From positions 1 through 64,000 of the forward strand of contig JAGVWC010000008.1 of assembly GCA_018304465.1 (NCBI GenBank): 64,000 nucleotides of DNA, in the 5' to 3' direction. This DNA comes from Candidatus Iainarchaeum sp. (GTDB taxonomy: Archaea > Iainarchaeota > Iainarchaeia > Iainarchaeales > JAGVWC01). Shown piece after piece: positions 19,654-58,958 of this stretch. Below the pieces are notes generated by a model. That model saw only the letters and a program-made list of their open reading frames with translations, was not told the origin of the DNA and searched no databases. The stretch's first letter is position 1. Every line of letters starts with the position of its first letter. The position numbers were made by a program, and so were the translations under genes.

Positions 19654-21081
19654 TCAAAACAGTTTCATCTGGCGATGCGGTTCCGAATCCGATTCAGAAC
19701 TCGTTTTTTTCGATGCTTTGACGGGTTTTTCAGGCTCCGTTTCGTGTGCCGAGCCGGCCTCGGGCTCGAAAAAAAATCCTTTTTTTCGGCGTTGGACCTG
19801 CCACGCCGCGGATAACTCTTGGGATTTTTCGAAGACTTCCTGCACGCCTTTGGACTTGGGTTCCTTGCCCATCAAAAAAGCGATTTCTTCCTCGGACAAA
19901 CCGAATTCCGCGGCCAGGCGCGCCGCTAAGGGTTTGGACTCGAAAAACGCCATCCAATACGGAAGGTCTTGCACGGAAAAAATCCGGCCGGATGAATGGG
20001 TTTTCTTTCCGATCTTTTTTCCAAGCGATTTTTTCATGTTACGCTTGGCGGAAGACGCCGACAAAAGACGCAACAGCCCCGGGAACTTATACATAATGAA
20101 CTCGTGGTTTGGCTCCGAATGACTCAACGCCACGCCGCTCGTCATCAACTCCATGCTGTACTTCATGAAACCAAAATGCTGCCGGCGCATGATTCGGCCG
20201 TTAAACATGTCGGCGCGACTCAGCCGCGAAAACGCTTTTGCGCGATCCGGAACCGACTTGAATTCCAGCGGAATGTTTTCCTCGATCCAACGCATCAAAA
20301 AATCCGGATCGGAGTCGGACGCAAACCGCGCTTTCTGGCAATCCGCCACGGTCTTTGCGCGAAAAATCTTTTGAATCGTCGAAAAAATCCGCTCTTCGCG
20401 TTCGCGCACGCCGATCGATTCCACGTCCTGCATCATGATTTTGCGCGAATCCCAGGCAATCGTCTGCAAATCCAGCACAGCGGAACGAATGTCGCCCGAA
20501 GCATTTTTGGCCAAAAGATTCACGGACTCGACGTCAAAATCCACTTTTTCTTTTTCGCAAATATCCTTTAGAAAACGCGCGACACTCAAATAATTCGGCT
20601 TCTTGAATTCGAGTTTTTTGCAAAAATTCCGGATTTCCGCCATCTGCGGATTTTCGTAAATGTCGTTTGCCGTCAACATGACGGGATTCTTGGCTTCCTT
20701 TAACACCGACAAAACCGCCGACATTCCGCCTTTGTCTTCCCGCTTTTGCAGCACGTCGATCTCGTCAAGCAACACCAGCCGAAAAGAACCCGAAAAAGAC
20801 GCGTTCGCGGACGCCGCTCCGACCACGCGCTCCACCATGTCCTTGGAGCGAAGATCCGACGCGTTGGATTCGAAAAGATGCCATCCGCTTTGACGGCCAA
20901 CAAGCTCCGCCAACGCGGTTTTTCCGACCCCGCTTGGACCAAACAACAACAAGGGTTTTTGGGGACGATTCTTGGACCATTCCAACGCCCAATTTGCGGC
21001 TTCTTTAACCAATTCGCTGTTTCCTACGAATTCTTCGTACGATTTCGGAAAATATTTTTGAGTCCAAAGCTCAGTCGACAT
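19654..21081 (-). CDS. rfcL: replication factor C large subunit
   Basis: MSTELWTQKYFPKSYEEFVGNSELV... with Walker A GPSGVGKT and a basic C-terminal tail typical of RfcL. Confidence 0.85.
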   Translation of the reverse strand: MSTELWTQKYFPKSYEEFVGNSELVKEAANWALEWSKNRPQKPLLLFGPSGVGKTALAELVGRQSGWHLFESNASDLRSKDMVERVVGAASANASFSGSFRLVLLDEIDVLQKREDKGGMSAVLSVLKEAKNPVMLTANDIYENPQMAEIRNFCKKLEFKKPNYLSVARFLKDICEKEKVDFDVESVNLLAKNASGDIRSAVLDLQTIAWDSRKIMMQDVESIGVREREERIFSTIQKIFRAKTVADCQKARFASDSDPDFLMRWIEENIPLEFKSVPDRAKAFSRLSRADMFNGRIMRRQHFGFMKYSMELMTSGVALSHSEPNHEFIMYKFPGLLRLLSASSAKRNMKKSLGKKIGKKTHSSGRIFSVQDLPYWMAFFESKPLAARLAAEFGLSEEEIAFLMGKEPKSKGVQEVFEKSQELSAAWQVQRRKKGFFFEPEAGSAHETEPEKPVKASKKTSSESDSEPHRQMKLF

Positions 21082-21477
21082 GTACACAACCAAACCGAAA
21101 ACCCATTAAAAAAAGACTGTTTCAAACAAACAGTTATCAATCCATTTCCAGAGGTTTTTTCATGCCCGCAAAACCACCTGCCAATTCCAGATGCAGCACC
21201 ATCAAAAAAGCCTACCCGCCCGGAACACCGCTGACAATTTTTGAACCCGTCACGAGCGTTTTGGAAAAACGAATCGACAAAACCGACCGCCGACAAAACC
21301 CCAGGGCCGCGAAAAAGACAAACAAACGGTCCCCGCACCCAAAAAAGAAACCCACATCGCATCGCAATTCGTGAAAAAAAAGAACCCCGCTCCTAAAGGC
21401 ACTTTTTGCCCATAGCGTCCATTAAAATTCCTTTCTTTAGGGAAATAGGTTAGAAACTATCAAACGGAGCGAATACA

Positions 21478-43066: not shown

Positions 43067-43726
43067 TCATTTTTGGGGTCTGGGTGGTTTGCGTCGGTTC
43101 GATTTTCGCCTCAATTTGGCTGCCTGCTGCCGGGGGTTTTGCGTATACTCCCCTAATGCAGTTCGAGACCTAGGACTCGAAAACAAGGCCTCGAACGCTC
43201 GATCTGCGTCTAACTGTTCAATCGCATGAGAATGTATGCCAAGACTCAACTCTGGGACCTCATAGATTTTCTTCCACGGAATCCCCAACACGTTGGCTAA
43301 TCTTCTTGATTGATTAAAGACACACATATTCCAGTACTCCCCAAAAGAACGGACCCCTATGCGCTCCAGATTAATTGAAAAACCACGACGGGCGAGTAGG
43401 CGCTTGAGCGAATCCCCAGAAATATTACCCGGTTGAACAACTACTCGTGTTCCAAGTGAACGATGGGCAAAAGAAACCAGTTTTCCCAGTTTCCGAAGAA
43501 ACCAGGCGGTGTTTGCATGCGGTCTTCGCTTGAGTAATTTGGAGCTTGGAGTCACGATCACCAAAACAGAATCGGGTTCTTGTGCAGTTCGCCGAATTTC
43601 GTTTCCCCACAAGCCCAAAACAAAACGAGCGTTTTTCTTAAGCCGTGCAGCAGGGTCATCAAGATAAGCAAACGTATACAGCGGATGTACCAAGAGACTA
43701 ATTTTTGAGATTGAATGCCCCGTCAC
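43067..43726 (-). CDS. hypothetical protein
   Basis: 219 aa, no motif recognised. Codon usage differs visibly from neighbouring genes. Confidence 0.35.
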   Translation of the reverse strand: MTGHSISKISLLVHPLYTFAYLDDPAARLKKNARFVLGLWGNEIRRTAQEPDSVLVIVTPSSKLLKRRPHANTAWFLRKLGKLVSFAHRSLGTRVVVQPGNISGDSLKRLLARRGFSINLERIGVRSFGEYWNMCVFNQSRRLANVLGIPWKKIYEVPELSLGIHSHAIEQLDADRAFEALFSSPRSRTALGEYTQNPRQQAAKLRRKSNRRKPPRPQK

Positions 43727-45788: not shown

Positions 45789-46922
45789 ATGTACAACATG
45801 CAACACAAAACAAAAATACTTTTGTTGTTGGCAACCCTGGTGTTTGCCAGCGTTTTTGCCGCGACTCCGAGCCCCGGCCACAACCTAAACGAACTATCCC
45901 CCACCAACTGTCCCGCCGGACAATTCCTCATCAACATCGGCGCCGGAATCGGCACCGCCGGATACGCCTGCCAAACCCCCGCCGCCAGCTACTGGCAAGC
46001 CAACGGACCCAGCATTTACTACAACACCGGATACATCGGCATCGGAATCAACGCGCCCCAATCCAAACTCGACATCCAAAACGGAGGAATACTCGTCCGA
46101 GGATACAACCTACCCGTTGGAGGAGTCCCGATGCTGGCCATGGGATACAATACCGCACTAGACCGCGCACAAATTATGTCCGTCAACTCAAACGTCATCG
46201 GAAAACAACTTGACATTTCCGGATACCCGCTTATTTTTCGATCCTCCCACACCGGCAACGAACAAGTCCGAATCAATACCGACGGAAAAGTCGGCATTGG
46301 CGTCGACGCACCCACCGAAAAACTGGATGTCGCCGGCAAAATCAAAGGAACCGAACTCTGCATCGGAAATGTCTGCAAAGACGCATGGCCGTCGGAAAGC
46401 AGCGGAACCATCACTCAAGTCACCGTCGGATCCGGAATGACCGGCGGCGGAAGCAGCGGAAGCGTTAGCGTTCGATTAAGCGACTGTCCCGCAGGACAAG
46501 TACTCAAAAGCTGCGGAAACAACTGCTGGCAATGCCAAGCGGACAACGTCGGCAACGTAACGATCGATTCTTCCTGGCTGGTCAACAATGCGCCGCAAGG
46601 AACCCTCTGCGGAAGCTACAAAATCCAGGCGTACTACTACTGGACCAATTTGCCCGAATGCGGATACAAATCATTCAACAGCGTTTTTGACCGCCAATTA
46701 TTGACTTCGTGCGCGGGACACAACATCGTTTCCGGAAACAGCGTGTGGTTTAGCGAGATACAACAATGCGGACTTTTCGGATGCACACCCTACTATTGCA
46801 CCATGAATTTTACCGCTGACTGTCCTGCCGGATATGCCCCCAAAATGATCGCGTACGAACACGTCGATCCGCCGTTTGTCGACCCTATTTTCAGCGCGTT
46901 CTATTCCTGCATCAAACAATAA
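45789..46922 (+). CDS. secreted Cys-rich protein with repeated CPAGQ motifs and VGIG...KLDV tail-fibre-like motifs
   Basis: Signal peptide. CPAGQFL, CPAGQVL and [23 protein letters not shown] and [20 protein letters not shown]. Confidence 0.5.
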
Positions 46923-46986: not shown

Positions 46987-49881
46987 ATGTCCGAAAAAGA
47001 AAACACGATCGGAGAACTGCCCTGGATCGAAAAATACCGACCCCACACCTTAACCGACGTGATCGGACAAGAAGAAATCACCAAACGACTCAGCGCCTAC
47101 GCCAAAGCCAAAAACATGCCCCACTTATTGTTTTCGGGACCCGCCGGCGTTGGAAAAACCAGTTCTTCTGTCGCGCTTGCCAAAGAACTATTCGGACCCA
47201 GCTACGAACGAAACTTTTTAGAATTAAACGCATCGGATTCAAGAGGAATCGACGTGGTTCGCGGAACCATCAAAGACTTCGCGCGAACCCTTGCCTTTGA
47301 CTCGAATTTCAAAATCATTTTCCTGGACGAAAGCGACGCGCTCACCGCGGACGCCCAACAAGCGCTTCGCCGAACCATGGAAAAATTCACCAAAACCTGC
47401 CGCTTCATTTTGAGCTGCGTCACGCCGGATACCAAAATTACGCTCCCAAACGAAACCGAAATCACCATTGGGGAATTCGTCGAAAAATTCGAACAGAAAA
47501 AACAATTTGAAATCTTGAATATTGACGAAGCCCAGAGAATCGAAAAAAACGATTCAGTCATTTGCACCATCGAACAAAATCCCCAAACAACAGGAAAACG
47601 AGTCTTTGAACTCGAAACCAACACTGGCCGGACACTCAAACTAACCGAGGATCACTTGCTTCTTACCGAATCGGGGTGGAAGCAAGCAGGACAAATCAGC
47701 ATGGGCGAAAAAATCGTGGTTTTTCCAAGCCTTGAAGGAACTGCCATTCCAGATGATTCTCGCCATTTAATCGATAAAACGGCGTTCGGAGAGTTCATCA
47801 AAAAAACGGAACTTGAAAACAACTACAAGCCACTGACTGAAGCAAAAACATTTAGAGAACTCTGTACTCAAGACAAGCACCGCATCATTGAATCCATAAA
47901 AAAACTAGCGTGCATAGTCCGCAATGGTGCCGGCCTAACCCCGACCGAAAATAGGCTCTTTCAGCATATTTTAAAATGCCCGAACAGTAGCCGCTTAGAA
48001 CTGCAAACCAGGATGCAATTGTCAAGAATCCGAACAGGCGAGCTTCTGCACGCCATTGAAAAGAAAGGATTTCTCGTGCGGAGCCGCAAAGGCAAAATGG
48101 CGCATTTCGCCGCTAACGGAATGCCCTTTGCGCTTCGGAATTACCGCGATATACAAAACCAAATCCAGCAAGAATTCAAAATAAGAATCTCCTATGCGGG
48201 AATAAAAAAAATAACCAAAAACAAAGAACATCACCCCCAAGGTCTGCATGAAAAAACAATCCGGGAATTAGAAAAAAAAGAAATGTTTTCAATTACGCGC
48301 GATTCCCCTAAAGCCGCAGCAATCATACGTCTGCTGGGGTTCATCTTCGGAGACGGCCACATTACAAAGTCGCGCCAGCGCATCATTTTCACCGGAAACA
48401 TCGAAACGTTGAAAGAAGTTAAAAAAGACCTCGAGTTACTTGGTTTTGATTCAAGCCAAATCCAACACAAACTCATCAACAATACGATCGGGAATAGAAA
48501 ATTCACTGGAACCACCACATGCTTTTATGTCGATTCACGTGCACTGGAAAAGACCCTAGAATTCTTGGGCGCCCCCAGGGGAGACAAAATAATAACCGCG
48601 TATGAATTGCCAAAAACCGTTCAAACAGGCAATAGACTCCAAAAACGCGAATTCCTGCGCGCATTGTTTGGGTGCGAAGGATACTCTCCGAAGATTGACC
48701 AAAAAAACTTCGAAGCAATTCCAATGCGAATGCACAAAGCAACCGAACTACACGACAACATGCTGCGATTCTTTACCGATTTGCAAAACTTGTTAAAAGA
48801 ATTCGATGTCGATTCAACAGTTTCCGTTGAACAACTGGATTATACGAGAAAAGACGGAAAAAAACCAGAGTGCTTCTGTCTCAGCCCGCTGCCAAACAAC
48901 CAAAATCTCTTTCGCTTCTTCTCCCGAATAGGGTATGCGTATGAAACCACAAAAATGAACAAAGCACGATTAGCCTCCGAATATCTTCGACATAAACAAC
49001 ATGTGCTCAACCAGCAAAAGCAAAAAGCACAACAAATCATTACAGCGCTTGGAAGCGGTAAGACCACCGGAGAATTGGCACGCGAATTTGGTTGCACCCC
49101 TGACTTTGTAGCCAGCCAAGCAAAAAAAAAGCCGGTTCATCTTCCCCGAAAAGGTTTCCCATCCTTCATAGACTGGAAAGAAAAAAACCAGTATGAAAAC
49201 GGGCTTGTATTCAACGAAGTGATACGACTGCAACAAGTGTGCGCACCAAAAGTAATCGATCTCACCTGTCTCTCAAACCACAATTTTATAGCTAATGGAA
49301 TCATATCCCATAATTGCAATTATTCTTCCCGCATTATCGAACCCATTCAAAGCAGATGCGTCGTGTTCAGGTTCAGACCCTTAACGCCAAAAGACATCGA
49401 CAACGCCCTTTACCCCATCGCCAAAAAAGAAGGCATCGAACTCAACGAAAAAACATTGAAAGCCATCAATTACGTTTCCCAAGGCGATTTACGCAAAGCC
49501 ATCAACGTTTTGCAAGCCGCCGGCGCCAGCGGAAAAAAACTCACAGAAGAAAACGTGTACGCCGTCAGTTCTCGTGCCAGACCCGAAGAACTCCAGCAAA
49601 TGATCCGGCTCGCACTAGACGCCAAATTCATGGACGCCCGCGAAAAACTCGACCAACTGCTCTTCGAACACGGTATGAGCGGAGAAGACGTGATCACGCA
49701 AATGTACCGCGAAATCATGGACATGGAAGAAAAAGAAATTCCGTCACACACCAAAATCGAATTAGTGGACATCATCGGCGAATACAACTTCCGGCTCGTT
49801 GAAGGCGCCAACGAACGATTACAATTAGAAGCATTGCTTGCGCAATTCGGAAAATTCAAACACGCGCACGAAAAAGATTAA
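46987..49881 (+). CDS. rfcS: replication factor C small subunit, interrupted by one intein (exteins 46987..47415 and 49315..49881)
   Basis: [30 protein letters not shown]...GPAGVGKTS...[11 protein letters not shown]...TCRFILS|C[intein]HN|[15 protein letters not shown]. Confidence 0.9.
47416..49314 (+). mobile_element. intein (633 aa) with a LAGLIDADG homing-endonuclease domain inside rfcS
   Basis: Starts with Cys (CVTPDTKI...) and ends ...GIISHN followed by +1 Cys. Two LAGLIDADG-type motifs are present ([11 protein letters not shown] and [10 protein letters not shown]). In frame with both exteins. Confidence 0.8.
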
Positions 49882-49948
49882 CACGTTGGCCGATTTCAAA
49901 AAGCCGAAACACCCAAAAAAAGAACGAAACGAACCAGCAGGAATACGA

Positions 49949-50932
49949 ATGCCAAAGCCACGAAAAAATCGTTCCATCCCACGCTTAAGCTCGGCGGAGC
50001 ATGCCGAACGAAACAAACAGGTTCTGAACATCCATGAAAACGTTCGAGCGATCGCCGCAATTTTTGTCACCAAACATGGAGGCCTTAAAGCGATCGAACA
50101 ACAGTATGGACTGACGTTTGACGACTTGATTCAGATCGGCAACCTAGGCGCAATGGAAGCGGCATCCACCTGGGACCCCGGCAAGGGAAGTTCCTTTCTG
50201 ACTTTCGCCAGCCGCCGTATAGAAGGTGCAATTCAGGATCATATTCGCAAATATGGAACCCTCGTTCACGTCTCGCGGACTTTCCATCGCCAGCTAAACA
50301 GCGGTAAACTCCAAAAACTCGAACAGGAAATCGCAGAAACAACTCCCGGAACTTCCGTGCACAAAAGACTCGTCCGTGAACGGGCCGGACTTCTAGGGCA
50401 ACGCCAAACCCAGACCGTCAAGTCGATTTCTTTTCAAAACGAACAAGCCCCAAGACCCGTCGATCGCAATGAACTCCGAAGCCTCAAACAGTACTTTTTG
50501 CGCCGCCTCAAACAGTTTCCCCGACACGAACAACTCTGTTTTATTCTCAGTTACCTGCATCCCACGCCCTCCGAAATACAGAGGTTCGTCCATGAAAAAC
50601 CCTTATTCCTATCCGCCAGGAACGCCTTCACCAGTCGACCCACCGACCGGGTATTCAATCTCGACCTGAACCTACTATCACCCACGATGCCCCCTAAAAC
50701 CATTGGCAGAATACTGGGTCTGTCCGAAATTAGAGTCTACCAGATCCGAATAAAAATTGGAAGCGCAATTTTCGCCGATCCGCGTACACTCAAGGCATTC
50801 GGATTAGAAGACACAGAGGGAAAATACCCCGCTATCGCCCAGGTACTCGCACACAAAAAAAAATTTACCGACTCCGATTACAATCGAATCGGAAAAATGC
50901 TGGAAGAACTGTTCCAGCCGCTTGAAAACTAG
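49949..50932 (+). CDS. bacterial-type sigma-70 family factor (sigma-28/FliA-like, regions 2, 3 and 4)
   Basis: FDDLIQIGNLGAMEAASTWDPGKGSSFLTFASRRIEGAIQDHIRKYGTLVHVSRTFHRQLNSGKLQKLEQEIAETTPG aligns position by position with the E. coli FliA region 2-3 sequence (LDDLLQAGGIGLLNAVERYD...FTTYAVQRIRGAMLDELR...VPRSVRRN...LEQELGR). Region 4-like segment: FPRHEQLCFILSYL...TIGRILGLSEIRVYQIRIKIGSAI. Confidence 0.7.
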   Translation: MPKPRKNRSIPRLSSAEHAERNKQVLNIHENVRAIAAIFVTKHGGLKAIEQQYGLTFDDLIQIGNLGAMEAASTWDPGKGSSFLTFASRRIEGAIQDHIRKYGTLVHVSRTFHRQLNSGKLQKLEQEIAETTPGTSVHKRLVRERAGLLGQRQTQTVKSISFQNEQAPRPVDRNELRSLKQYFLRRLKQFPRHEQLCFILSYLHPTPSEIQRFVHEKPLFLSARNAFTSRPTDRVFNLDLNLLSPTMPPKTIGRILGLSEIRVYQIRIKIGSAIFADPRTLKAFGLEDTEGKYPAIAQVLAHKKKFTDSDYNRIGKMLEELFQPLEN

Positions 50933-51500
50933 GAGAACCAACATAGCCCTTGAAAAATCCGCGTACTTAAAATTCAAACACGGAGACCGCATCCCCGATT
51001 TCCAGCTCATCGGAACCGACGACCGCATCCACTATTCGAAAGGGTTTTCCGGCAAAGCGATTCTGATCGTGTTCATGTGCAACCACTGTCCGTACGTCAA
51101 ACCCAAAGTGCCATTCCTGGTGGAACTACAAGAAAAATACCAAGCCGCCGGACTCCAAATCGTTGCAATCAACACCAACAACAACCCCGATTACCCCGAA
51201 GACTCGTTTCCAAAAATGAAGGCGTACTCCAAAAAATGGAACCTCAATTTTTTGTACTTGCTGGACGAAGACCAGCAAATCGCCAAAACTTTCGACGCGC
51301 GCTGCACCCCCGACTCGTATTTATTCAACTCTGAAAAAAAACTCGTGTATCACGGACGCATCGACGACCAACACGGAGAGCCTCACTCTGAACAAGACAC
51401 CAACGAACTCGAAGACGCCATCCGAGAAGTCCTCGAAACCGGCGGTTGCACGGCGGACGAAAACCCGTCGCAAGGCTGCAGCATCAAATGGAACAAATGA
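50922..51500 (+). CDS. thioredoxin-fold protein (redoxin/TlpA-like, CxxC)
   Basis: GKAILIVFMCNHCPYVKP and IVAINTNN form the thioredoxin-fold beta-alpha-beta pattern. Confidence 0.6.
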   Translation: MKTRRTNIALEKSAYLKFKHGDRIPDFQLIGTDDRIHYSKGFSGKAILIVFMCNHCPYVKPKVPFLVELQEKYQAAGLQIVAINTNNNPDYPEDSFPKMKAYSKKWNLNFLYLLDEDQQIAKTFDARCTPDSYLFNSEKKLVYHGRIDDQHGEPHSEQDTNELEDAIREVLETGGCTADENPSQGCSIKWNK

Positions 51501-52800: not shown

Positions 52801-53568
52801 ATGAAACCACCCGACCCATTTTCTGATTTCACATTGATGGAAATCAGCTACTTACCGCCGCAATCCATCGAAACCGCGAAAAGACTTTTTGAGCGTCACG
52901 GTTGGAACGGTCTAACAGCCATCGGAAATATCATACAAGAAAAAATCGACTTCGCAAAAACACAAATCGACCAGCACACTCGCCCCGGAGACCAGCTCTT
53001 GATTGAAGCGGCGGAAGGAATGTCATTTGAGGCATTCATAAAAACGCAAGGAATCGAATCGCTTGAAAAAATGGAACCGTTTTCACGCCGATTTCTGGAG
53101 CAAAATTGGAGCCGTTGGACTGAAAAAAACATGAATATGTACCGCGAAATCGCAGAATATGCCACCCAACGCGGACGCATTGTAAAAAGCTTCGAATACG
53201 GCGTGACACGCACAGGGAGTCGCATGCACAATGCAGCCCATCAAGTATACCAAATGGCCCCCGAAAAAAAGCAGCGAATCGAAAACATTCTGAATTATCG
53301 GCGACACATCGGAATGCAACGCCAAATCGAACGTCGAAAACCCGCGATGGTCATTTGTGCCGCCGGCCATGCCGTGGCCATTGAACACGATATTCACCCT
53401 CGACGCGTGATATATGAGGACCCCAAAATGAAAGAAAAATGGGGCACCAAAAAATCGATCGCTGAGATAAAAAACCTGATTCAAGCATACTTATTTGAAA
53501 AACAAGCCCGAAGGCGAAAAATAAACCAAGCAAGAACCAGACCACCACCAAAGAAAAAACCCAAATGA
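52801..53568 (+). CDS. hypothetical protein
   Basis: 255 aa, no motif recognised, basic C-terminal tail. Confidence 0.35.
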   Translation: MKPPDPFSDFTLMEISYLPPQSIETAKRLFERHGWNGLTAIGNIIQEKIDFAKTQIDQHTRPGDQLLIEAAEGMSFEAFIKTQGIESLEKMEPFSRRFLEQNWSRWTEKNMNMYREIAEYATQRGRIVKSFEYGVTRTGSRMHNAAHQVYQMAPEKKQRIENILNYRRHIGMQRQIERRKPAMVICAAGHAVAIEHDIHPRRVIYEDPKMKEKWGTKKSIAEIKNLIQAYLFEKQARRRKINQARTRPPPKKKPK

Positions 53569-57212: not shown

Positions 57213-58958
57213 ATGCCCGACTATCTCAAGGAAGCCATTGAGAAAGCCAAAAAAGCCAAGGACGCTTCCAAAACCCAACAAGCGCCTGCGACAAACATCT
57301 ACTCTAACCAGCCGAACGAAAAACAAATCGCGAAAACGATCGACATCGTTCAAAAACCCGCGCCGACACCCACTCCTTCTTCAACGACCGCAACAGACCC
57401 GGCCAAACTACTGGATTCCACCATCGAAGAACTGGACATCGAGCAATTCGAACAAGAACGCCAAATGGAACCCGACGAAAACCGCGAAGTCATTGAAAGC
57501 AACGGAAGCGTTCAAATCGTTCGCCGCAAAAACCACGACTTGCTCGAATACCGCGTTCCCGTTCCAAAACCCACCTTGGGCGAAAAAACGATTATCAACA
57601 TTATCAAAGAAGCCGCCACCCAACTCATTTCGATTTCACCGTACCGCATCCGCGATCCCCAGCAACGCCGCAACGTATACTACCAGCGCATCATGGAAAT
57701 ACTCAAAAACAGCCCCGAACTCAAAATTTCGCCCACGCGATTCCAGTTTTACGCCGAATCAGTCGTTCGCGAAATGGTCGGATACGGCGTCCTCGACCCA
57801 TTGTTATCCGACGACAACATCGAAGAAATCATGGTCATCGGACCCAAAAAACCCGTCTACGTGTTCCACCGAAAACACGACATGATGACTACCAACATCG
57901 AATTTTTTTCCGACAAAGAAATCCAAAACGTCGTCAACAAAATCGCCCGAGACGTCGGACGCCGCGTCGACTTTTCCACCCCGTTGCTTGACGCCCGCTT
58001 ACCCGACGGAAGCCGCGTCAACGCGACGATTCCGCCCGCAAGCGTTGACGCCAGTTCTTTAACGATCCGAAAATTCCGAAAAGACCCGTACACCATTCTG
58101 GACCTCATCAACCTTAACACCATGGACAGCAAAACCGCCGCGTTTTTGTGGCTGTGCGTCGAAGGACTCTCCACCAAACCCGCCAACGTGCTCATTGCCG
58201 GCGGAACCGGCAGCGGAAAAACCACGACCCTCAACGTTTTCACGTCGCTGGTGCCCGAACGCGAACGCGTCATCACGATCGAAGACACCGCCGAACTCAA
58301 TTTGCCGCTTCAACACTGGATCCGGCTCGAAGGACGACCCCCCGGAATCGAAGGCGGCGGAGAACTCGCGTTGGATATTTTAACCAAAAACAGCTTGCGC
58401 ATGCGTCCGGACCGCATCATTGTCGGAGAAGTCCGGCACGCGGAAGCCGCCACCATGTTTACCGCCATGAACACGGGACACGACGGCGTCATGGGAACCA
58501 TTCACGCGAACAGCGCCGAAGAAACCCTGGTCCGCATCCTAAGCCCCCCCATGAGCGTTCCTCAAACCATGCTAGCAGGACTTGATTTTATCGTGGTTCA
58601 AAACCGGTTACACGACCGCCGAAAAGGAACGATCCGGCGCATCACTGAAATCGCGGAAGTTCACGGCGTGCTCGAAGGAAAGCCCGTGACCCAACCCCTG
58701 TTCGAATGGAACGCGACCGAAGACAAGCTTCAATACAGCGCAAGCCAAACCGAATCCACACCGGACCGAAAAAACAAACTCAAAACCAAGGAAATCAAAT
58801 ACTTCAAAAAATTATCCGACTTGACCGGACGATCAATCGCCGACATCGAACATGAAATCGACCGCCGGGCGGATTTCCTCGAAAAACTCACCAAACAAAA
58901 CATCAGCGGCATCAAAGCCGTGCGAGACCTCACCAACCAGTTGTTATCCAATTCGTGA
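57213..58958 (+). CDS. type IV pilus/archaellum-type assembly ATPase (FlaI/TadA/EpdL-like)
   Basis: Walker A AGGTGSGKTT, Asp-box and His-box (TGHDGVMGTIHANS), and an N-terminal PAS-like region. 581 aa. Confidence 0.85.
   Translation: MPDYLKEAIEKAKKAKDASKTQQAPATNIYSNQPNEKQIAKTIDIVQKPAPTPTPSSTTATDPAKLLDSTIEELDIEQFEQERQMEPDENREVIESNGSVQIVRRKNHDLLEYRVPVPKPTLGEKTIINIIKEAATQLISISPYRIRDPQQRRNVYYQRIMEILKNSPELKISPTRFQFYAESVVREMVGYGVLDPLLSDDNIEEIMVIGPKKPVYVFHRKHDMMTTNIEFFSDKEIQNVVNKIARDVGRRVDFSTPLLDARLPDGSRVNATIPPASVDASSLTIRKFRKDPYTILDLINLNTMDSKTAAFLWLCVEGLSTKPANVLIAGGTGSGKTTTLNVFTSLVPERERVITIEDTAELNLPLQHWIRLEGRPPGIEGGGELALDILTKNSLRMRPDRIIVGEVRHAEAATMFTAMNTGHDGVMGTIHANSAEETLVRILSPPMSVPQTMLAGLDFIVVQNRLHDRRKGTIRRITEIAEVHGVLEGKPVTQPLFEWNATEDKLQYSASQTESTPDRKNKLKTKEIKYFKKLSDLTGRSIADIEHEIDRRADFLEKLTKQNISGIKAVRDLTNQLLSNS

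Follow-up and report, generated by a model that had tools for sequence, protein, structure and literature searches.

Insertion of a divergent sigma-70-family gene between rfcS and a redoxin gene in a DPANN archaeal chromosome

The window considered here, a 64,000-nucleotide (64-kb) stretch of DNA from Candidatus Iainarchaeum sp. (contig JAGVWC010000008.1, positions 1 to 64,000), contains an intact open reading frame (ORF) for a highly divergent member of the sigma-70 family, whose domains 2, 3 and 4 appear to follow one another in canonical order. Sigma factors define the initiation of transcription in bacteria, and archaea initiate with TBP, TFB and TFE. The gene is truly resident in the chromosome of a DPANN archaeon, where it evidently represents an insertion, about 1 kb long and specific to this lineage, in the spacer between rfcS, encoding the small subunit of replication factor C (RFC), and a gene for a redoxin. 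On balance, the explanation that we favor as a whole is that a sigma-70-family gene has been inserted into an archaeal chromosome and works there as a DNA-binding regulator.

Membership in the sigma-70 family, which a preliminary description of the window had proposed, is borne out by profile matches to the protein itself. Residues 53-102 match Pfam Sigma70_r2 (PF04542; E 2.6e-13, 50 bits against a cut-off of 24), and residues 53-266 match the sigma-70 superfamily model of NCBIfam, TIGR02937 (54.8 bits against a cut-off of 42.9). Support for the remaining regions comes from comparison. BLASTP against residues 39-233 of E. coli FliA aligns residues 57-202 colinearly with FliA 41-201 (26% identity, E 4e-13) and reproduces the motif string, with RI.GA..D and LEQE, that had been read as an almost position-by-position likeness to FliA in regions 2-3. 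Colinearity with this protein spans region 2.1 to region 4.1, and the helix-turn-helix of region 4.2 is also recognizable. A profile built from the protein and three relatives matches FliA 39-201 and 202-233 (E 7.7e-28), with 25 bits in the latter segment. Pfam Sigma70_r3 has no match on the protein alone, the FliA alignment being colinear through region 3. Sigma70_r4 likewise has no match on the protein alone; its match in the closest relative, designated P0002 (31 bits against a cut-off of 24.1), aligns with residues 249-276, PKTIGRILGLSEIRVYQI.

Structure prediction gives a similar picture. An AlphaFold2 model computed from a 60-sequence alignment has a mean predicted local distance difference test (pLDDT) score of 81.6, exceeding 90 in domain 2 and reaching about 90 in the helices of region 4.2; the single-sequence model is poor (48.6). 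The top matches to the AlphaFold2 model in the PDB are all bacterial sigma factors, with about 290 columns aligned, although the TM-scores are low because the arrangement of the domains differs. The best solved-structure matches by sequence are FliA proteins. The protein is annotated at NCBI as a sigma-70 family factor, in a genome labeled Candidatus Diapherotrites. Its translation probably begins at ATG 49949, which gene callers use on all 13 contigs that carry the exact protein and from which the N-terminus of P0002 aligns at Met1, rather than at TTG 49838, where the maximal reading of the ORF would begin.

By these comparisons the protein is most like, and apparently descended from, the group 3 (FliA/sigma-28) sigma factors. 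In common with FliA (E. coli FliA, PDB 6PMI), it appears to have the domain order 2, 3, 3.2 linker, 4.1 and 4.2, and it has the FliA-type motifs DDL.Q.G..GL..A and RI.GA..D. Unlike FliA, with which it is 26% identical, the archaeal protein has an insertion of 44 residues within domain 4 and a C-terminal tail of 50 residues. FliA/WhiG models give the best matches among the NCBIfam subfamilies, yet these fall well below threshold (TIGR02479, 63.2 bits against 189.6; NF005413, 60 bits against 201), and the suggestion that the protein is FliA itself does not hold. The window has no bacterial flagellar genes, a gene for the partner protein FlgM was not found among the ORFs scanned (most of those of at least 100 residues), and the immediate neighbors are rfcS and the redoxin gene. 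The protein is thus set apart from FliA by its sub-threshold scores, by its lack of a flagellar or FlgM context and by its two extra segments.

The chromosome surrounding this gene is archaeal. Domain scans covered most of the ORFs of at least 100 residues in the window, and these include the RFC small subunit (with an intein bearing a LAGLIDADG domain), LonB, CDC48, Nre, the alpha and beta chains of an archaeal-type PheRS, a YGR210-type GTPase, DUF373, NFACT-R and a type IV pilus-like cluster with a PibD-type peptidase. The archaeal setting given in the preliminary description therefore stands as regards RFC with its intein and LonB. Its Cdc6 was not found among the ORFs scanned, where the AAA+ gene at 19654-21093 instead resembles the RFC large subunit, and its replication-gene operon reduces to rfcS followed by a peroxiredoxin gene. 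TBP and TFB were not found among the scanned ORFs either, and scans of the window for tRNAs and for Rfam families, rRNA included, came back empty. Of the 64 one-kilobase bins, 63 have a negative GC skew (cumulative value -10), and AT skew is mostly positive whatever the orientation of the genes; in the absence of a turning point, the whole window apparently lies on one replichore.

An assembly chimera, or a contaminating bacterial fragment, is an account of the sigma gene that nothing was found to favor and that we regard as scarcely credible. The exact protein is encoded on 13 contigs. Six independent contigs (three from ENA assemblies and three from independently assembled SRA runs), which come from no fewer than three projects, carry an identical gene with colinear flanks, showing 0-4 mismatches over 9-21 kb, and all six reproduce both junctions. 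The ancestral spacer and the Shine-Dalgarno sequence of the redoxin gene are contiguous with the insert, and GC content is flat across the borders of the gene, which itself has a GC content of 0.498 against a window mean of 0.494. At synonymous positions the gene is only mildly atypical, as had been described, with a GC content at third codon positions of 0.524 against 0.573 and a codon fit (z = -1.0) that ranks ninth from the bottom among 52 genes. This host-like composition agrees with the earlier view that the gene is ameliorated.

Comparison with related genomes reveals the state of the locus before the insertion. In the two closest loci, L012 (situated on an 831-kb contig) and L014/L015, amino-acid identity to the window is 65-84% over most of the common genes, and in both the order is TopA, Lrp/AsnC, two membrane proteins, rfcS, redoxin, RsmB, Nre and ThrRS; in L012 the synteny reaches further, into T2SSE. 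The redoxin gene lies directly 3′ of rfcS in both relatives, separated from it by 15 nt in L014 and by no more than 146 nt in L012, and tblastn found no sigma gene in the L012 or L014/L015 loci. Because both syntenic relatives have rfcS and then redoxin without the sigma gene, the insertion is specific to the lineage of the window, in line with the horizontal acquisition that had been suggested. The insertion point can be placed within a few tens of bases, the junction alignments retaining the old spacer motifs and the Shine-Dalgarno sequence. The features of the locus are listed in Table 1.

Table 1. Coordinates and features of the sigma-70-family gene and its neighbors in the window (aa, amino acids)
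Feature	Coordinates	Strand	Description and basis
rfcS (RFC small subunit, 964 aa, intein with LAGLIDADG)	46987..49881	+	Upstream neighbor; Pfam, gene calls
Spacer, 67 nt, 5′ of the sigma gene	49882..49948	+	Ancestral pieces TTCAAA, AAACACCC and an A-run; candidate TATA-like element TTTCAAAAA (49894-49902) and weak Shine-Dalgarno sequence AGGA (49939-49942); sequence and alignment to L012
Sigma-70-family (group 3, FliA-like) ORF	49949..50932	+	327 aa, ATG start, TAG stop (50930-50932); ORF list, Pfam Sigma70_r2, TIGR02937, gene callers
Sigma domain 2 (about aa 15-105; regions 1.2/2.1-2.4)	49991..50263	+	Core-binding helix DDLIQIGNLGAMEAA, FliA-type RRIEGAIQD; Pfam r2 at aa 53-102, pLDDT >90 at aa 21-100, FliA alignments, 42% identity to P0002
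Region 3 equivalent (aa 106-156) and 3.2-type linker (aa 157-171)	50264..50461	+	Colinear with FliA about 90-170; linker pLDDT <50 at aa 157-168
Region 4.1 (aa 172-204, ...PRHEQLCFILSYLH)	50462..50560	+	Aligned to FliA LPEREKLVLTLYY; TIGR02937 match extends to aa 266
Insertion of about 44 aa between regions 4.1 and 4.2 (aa 205-248)	50561..50692	+	Found otherwise only in P0002, with motif LHPT..EI..F..E.P; pLDDT low over aa 217-248
Region 4.2 helix-turn-helix (aa 249-276, PKTIGRILGLSEIRVYQIRIKIGSAI)	50693..50776	+	Aligns with P0002 Sigma70_r4 match and FliA LKEIG..LGVSESRVSQ; pLDDT about 90
C-terminal extension (aa 277-327)	50777..50929	+	None in bacterial FliA; FG[LI]..GK.P.I..RI..L.E[LM]F common with P0002
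Redoxin/AhpC-TSA family (peroxiredoxin) gene	50922..51500	+	Downstream neighbor; Pfam; homologues typical of DPANN archaea

Two readings of the arrangement were rejected. Transfer of the sigma gene together with the redoxin gene is not supported, as the latter is typical of DPANN archaea and occupies the same place in the relatives; its many homologues, at 45-66% identity, occur in metagenome-assembled genomes (MAGs) of Micrarchaeota, Diapherotrites, Woesearchaeota and Nanoarchaeota, and one redoxin, P0185, is 99% identical to that of the window. Similarly, a 14-nt perfect direct repeat, AAAATTCAAACACG, which flanks the gene at 49851-49864 and 50969-50982, is not a target-site duplication, given that similar sequence pre-exists at both sites in the relatives. 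Both copies encode KFKH, one in the final codons of rfcS and the other in the initial codons of the redoxin gene, and constitute a pre-existing microhomology.

An inserted gene might also be cargo of a mobile element, a virus or a defence system, for example an MZA-like system with its sigma-like protein MzaA, to which the protein does show weak matches (24 bits). These matches reflect a generic likeness in region 2: the NCBIfam model gives 24.5 bits against a cut-off of 800, and the PADLOC model gives 24.3 bits confined to region 2. Partner Mza genes, an integrase and terminal repeats are all lacking, the only flanking repeat being the pre-existing one described above, and none of the four nearby proteins scanned matched a defence model. 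Phage sigma factors resemble the present case in that they are sigma-70-family genes outside the usual chromosomal setting, but they match weakly in both sequence and fold, and they act on the polymerase of a bacterial host, none of which was found among the ORFs scanned here. Such an origin as cargo is consequently very unlikely.

The junctions bear on how the gene might be expressed. The preliminary description had the sigma gene overlapping the end of rfcS; in fact, the rfcS stop at 49881 is followed by the 67-nt spacer, and only the ORF read from TTG 49838 would overlap. Portions of this spacer may serve as a promoter and a ribosome-binding site. At the other end, the sigma stop codon overlaps the conserved Shine-Dalgarno sequence of the redoxin gene, AGGAGA (50931-50936). 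The redoxin start is homologous among the relatives, being TTG in L012 and ATG in L014, and the equivalent position in the window is ATA 50943, which lies 10 nt past the sigma stop and is well spaced from the conserved AGGAGA. The sole canonical start in the window is TTG 50922, 21 nt 5′ of this ATA and ahead of the Shine-Dalgarno sequence. An overlap with the downstream thioredoxin-fold gene, which had also been described, therefore exists to the extent of 11 nt if TTG 50922 is used and disappears if translation begins where it does in the relatives. Conceivably, the redoxin gene uses a rare ATA start, or the sigma insertion shifted the start. No run of four or more T residues occurs between rfcS and the sigma gene, and T-runs are present after the redoxin gene. 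The absence of such a run, together with the tight packing of the sigma and redoxin genes, is compatible with an rfcS-sigma-redoxin transcript, and the co-transcription proposed earlier is to that extent plausible while falling short of proof.

Several other genes around rfcS vary among these genomes. In the relatives, rfcS lacks the intein and encodes 333-335 residues (L012 6847-7854, L014 6984-7985). Conversely, the T2SSE ATPase of L012 (14996-16519) contains an intein with a LAGLIDADG domain, and that of the window (57213-58958) does not; inteins have been gained or lost between these close genomes. Three hypothetical genes of the window have no counterpart in the L012 or L014 loci: 45789-46922 (377 residues), 43067-43726 (219 residues) and 52801-53568 (255 residues). 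The first, just 5′ of rfcS, encodes a Cys-rich, probable surface protein, and the second has the most atypical codon usage of the window (z = -3.1). The block around rfcS is a hotspot of lineage-specific insertions.

Relatives of the protein are few and remote. An exhaustive HMMER search, covering 1.84 billion representative proteins, yielded 1709 matches at E <=1e-3, nearly all of which cover region 2 only, and just four at E <=1e-10, the protein itself included. The best three others, P0002, P0003 and P0004, are all encoded on archaeal contigs or MAGs, and a bacterial immediate source, as had been implied, is not supported; the donor may have been another DPANN archaeon. A word-indexed search of 5.8 billion proteins recovered the protein alone, with no orthologue of about 40% identity or more, and the profile version of the protein search gave mostly generic sigma factors. 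Nothing was found among GTDB species representatives, searched with the protein, or among JGI metagenome contigs, searched with an alignment of the protein and P0002.

The protein and P0002 are 33% identical overall, aligned over 20-286, and evidently form a real pair, having in common a KHGG.K insert, the insertion that separates regions 4.1 and 4.2 (LHPT..EI..F..E.P) and the motif in the C-terminal tail. The gene for P0002 lies with two small ORFs between those for RNase P Pop5 (Rpp14) and proteasome alpha (L008 1-2310). Pop5 and proteasome alpha are usually adjacent in the archaeal exosome-proteasome superoperon; if that pairing applies here, the P0002 gene also looks to have been inserted into a conserved gene pair.

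The other archaeal-encoded relatives are more distant. P0003, its group members P0032 and P0083, and P0004 all contain Sigma70_r2, and most also contain r4; P0003, P0083 and P0004 are archaeal-encoded, and P0032 comes without usable context. P0003 and P0004 rank second and third among all matches to the protein. These relatives differ from it in having long N-terminal extensions, no insertion in domain 4 and other genomic contexts. P0003 (L007 10001-12589) adjoins AglB, TBP and an L21e-RpoF-DUF655-KsgA cluster, its gene lying about 0.8 kb from that for TBP on the opposite strand, probably by coincidence, and P0083, which is close to P0003, adjoins RIO1. P0004, a protein of 1550 residues from a Nanoarchaeota MAG (GCA_030695685.1, L011 8001-12653), is annotated as a sigma-70 family factor. 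It contains three separate region-2-like domains along with matches to region 1.2 and region 4, an architecture of multiple sigma domains that is unusual in an archaeon, and its gene is situated between those for an archaeal ThrRS and a Ski2-type helicase. The next tier of relatives comprises genuine bacterial FliA proteins, encoded next to FlgM or in FlhA-FlhF-FlhG operons.

Conservation between the protein and P0002 is uneven along the sequence, with identities of 42% in region 2, 23% in region 3, 47% in the 3.2 linker, 21% in region 4.1 and 43% in the helix-turn-helix of region 4.2. Within the recognition helix of region 4.2, the pattern S-E-R-x-x-Q is invariant in all four aligned sequences (the protein, P0002, P0003 and P0032). 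The helix DDLIQIGNLGAMEAA, the counterpart of the bacterial helix that binds the clamp of the beta-prime subunit, is also kept, with the signature DD.IQ.G..G...A, as are aromatic residues at the positions of the -10 pocket (W75, F83 and F86), which we take to correspond to F419, F427 and Y430 of E. coli sigma-70. Provided that the divergence of the protein and P0002 took place within archaea, such a pattern favors purifying selection acting on sigma-like functions in archaeal cells.

The clamp coiled-coil is universal among RNA polymerases, providing the site for TFE/Spt5 in archaea and for sigma in bacteria. It could therefore be that the protein is a sigma factor domesticated for the archaeal polymerase, with domain 2 docked on the Rpo1N clamp coiled-coil so as to modulate promoter selectivity or initiation. 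Such a factor would compete with or complement TFE/Spt5 and read DNA through region 4.2, and the domain-4 insertion and the tail would be adaptations to the new partner. Retention of the core-binding signature and of W75, F83 and F86 in archaeal lineages is consistent with this scheme, as is the observation that archaeal-encoded sigma-like proteins are each other's best matches, and the subfamily-specific insertion and C-terminal tail could suit a new partner. However, a neighbor-joining tree unites the five archaeal sequences with a bootstrap of only 38%, and a hidden Markov model (HMM) of the P0003 group ranks the protein 33rd of 183, not above bacterial FliA proteins. In addition, TFB and TFE of the archaeal pre-initiation complex fill the same surfaces. 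We consider this degree of domestication improbable. A C-terminal extension homologous across the five archaeal proteins was likewise considered and rejected, the tail of the protein having no significant homology to those of P0003, P0032 and P0083 (2.5 bits with a tail-only HMM); the pairing with P0002 alone is claimed.

Alternatively, the protein could act as a canonical sigma factor for a bacterial-type core polymerase, encoded elsewhere in the genome or belonging to a bacterial partner cell, since all of the modules predicted to be required for holoenzyme formation appear to be present. No genes for bacterial RNA polymerase subunits (rpoA/B/C-type), an anti-sigma factor or FlgM occur among the scanned ORFs of the window, and DPANN genomes have been reported to carry the archaeal apparatus (PMC8204110). 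The protein lacks a signal peptide and any secretion context, and its domain-4 insertion and tail are atypical for a canonical factor. This explanation is accordingly more doubtful still than that of cargo.

With no bacterial core RNA polymerase found among the scanned ORFs of the window, and with archaeal initiation depending on TBP, TFB and TFE, we propose, tentatively as regards the mechanism on its own, that the protein is an accessory, sequence-specific DNA-binding regulator. It would bind DNA by the helix-turn-helix of region 4.2, and perhaps by domain 2 as well, and might touch the universally conserved clamp coiled-coil of RNA polymerase while the archaeal initiation factors stay in place. 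The sigma and redoxin genes would be transcribed together, whether the transcript starts at what remains of the old spacer promoter or comes from rfcS by read-through.

Several observations weigh against this proposal. The gene is present in a single population and absent from both sister genomes, leaving its long-term retention unproven. The domain-2 helix might be conserved for structural reasons alone, and a plain DNA-binding regulator would not obviously need domains 2, 3 and 4 together with the linker. The sigma-28-type -10 element GCCGATAA is not enriched in the window, with 66 matches (at most one mismatch) against 56 +/- 7.8 expected. Furthermore, a bacterial-type polymerase or partner may be encoded elsewhere in the genome, the scope of the search having been the 64-kb window. 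The motif GCCGAT just 5′ of the sigma gene, considered as a sigma-28 -10 element, was rejected on account of the same lack of enrichment.

It is also possible, although we think it unlikely, that the gene is a neutral passenger, recently acquired and as yet undecayed, with no role in this archaeon. Its restriction to one population fits well with this explanation, given that it is missing from both syntenic relatives and that a search of 5.8 billion proteins gave no orthologue at about 40% identity or above; the retention asserted in the preliminary description is shown for this one population only. The spot is also plastic, with lineage-specific insertions nearby (the gene for the 377-residue hypothetical protein and the rfcS intein). 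On the other hand, the 327-codon ORF is intact with all of the canonical sigma motifs, and its host-like codon usage and GC content speak against the gene having come very recently from a donor of different composition. Moreover, even at 33% identity, the protein and P0002 both keep the functional motifs of regions 2 and 4.2 along with their lineage-specific additions, which implies that purifying selection acted in the course of their history.

Sigma-70 genes in DPANN archaea are not new, contrary to what had been implied, and the protein of the window already bears the family name at NCBI. Such genes were described as family fam00359, with stress on Woesearchaeota, in a study that ruled out mis-binning, found TBP, TFB and TFE but no anti-sigma factors in DPANN archaea, and did not settle the mechanism (Castelle et al., 2021; PMC8204110); literature searches beyond that study returned nothing further. 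Compared by description, the present gene resembles those in lying among archaeal genes with no anti-sigma factor nearby (PMC8204110). It differs in that its genome is labeled Diapherotrites and in that it is a near-orphan, with one relative at 33% identity and additions of its own. What is new here is the exact insertion site and its ancestral state, the near-orphan status, the features of the subfamily formed with P0002 and the fact that other archaea encode the best matches.

The locus is a clean natural example, in which the ancestral state is visible in two relatives and the polymerase-clamp and promoter motifs are kept, and it provides a convenient candidate for asking whether such proteins bind DNA, the archaeal polymerase or nothing. 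If it is true that proteins of this kind act on the archaeal polymerase, they would blur a sharp molecular divide between bacteria and archaea, and some archaea would possess a promoter-selectivity factor of bacterial style. If they are instead plain DNA-binding regulators or passengers, the gene would represent ordinary gene transfer into a small, symbiont-like genome.

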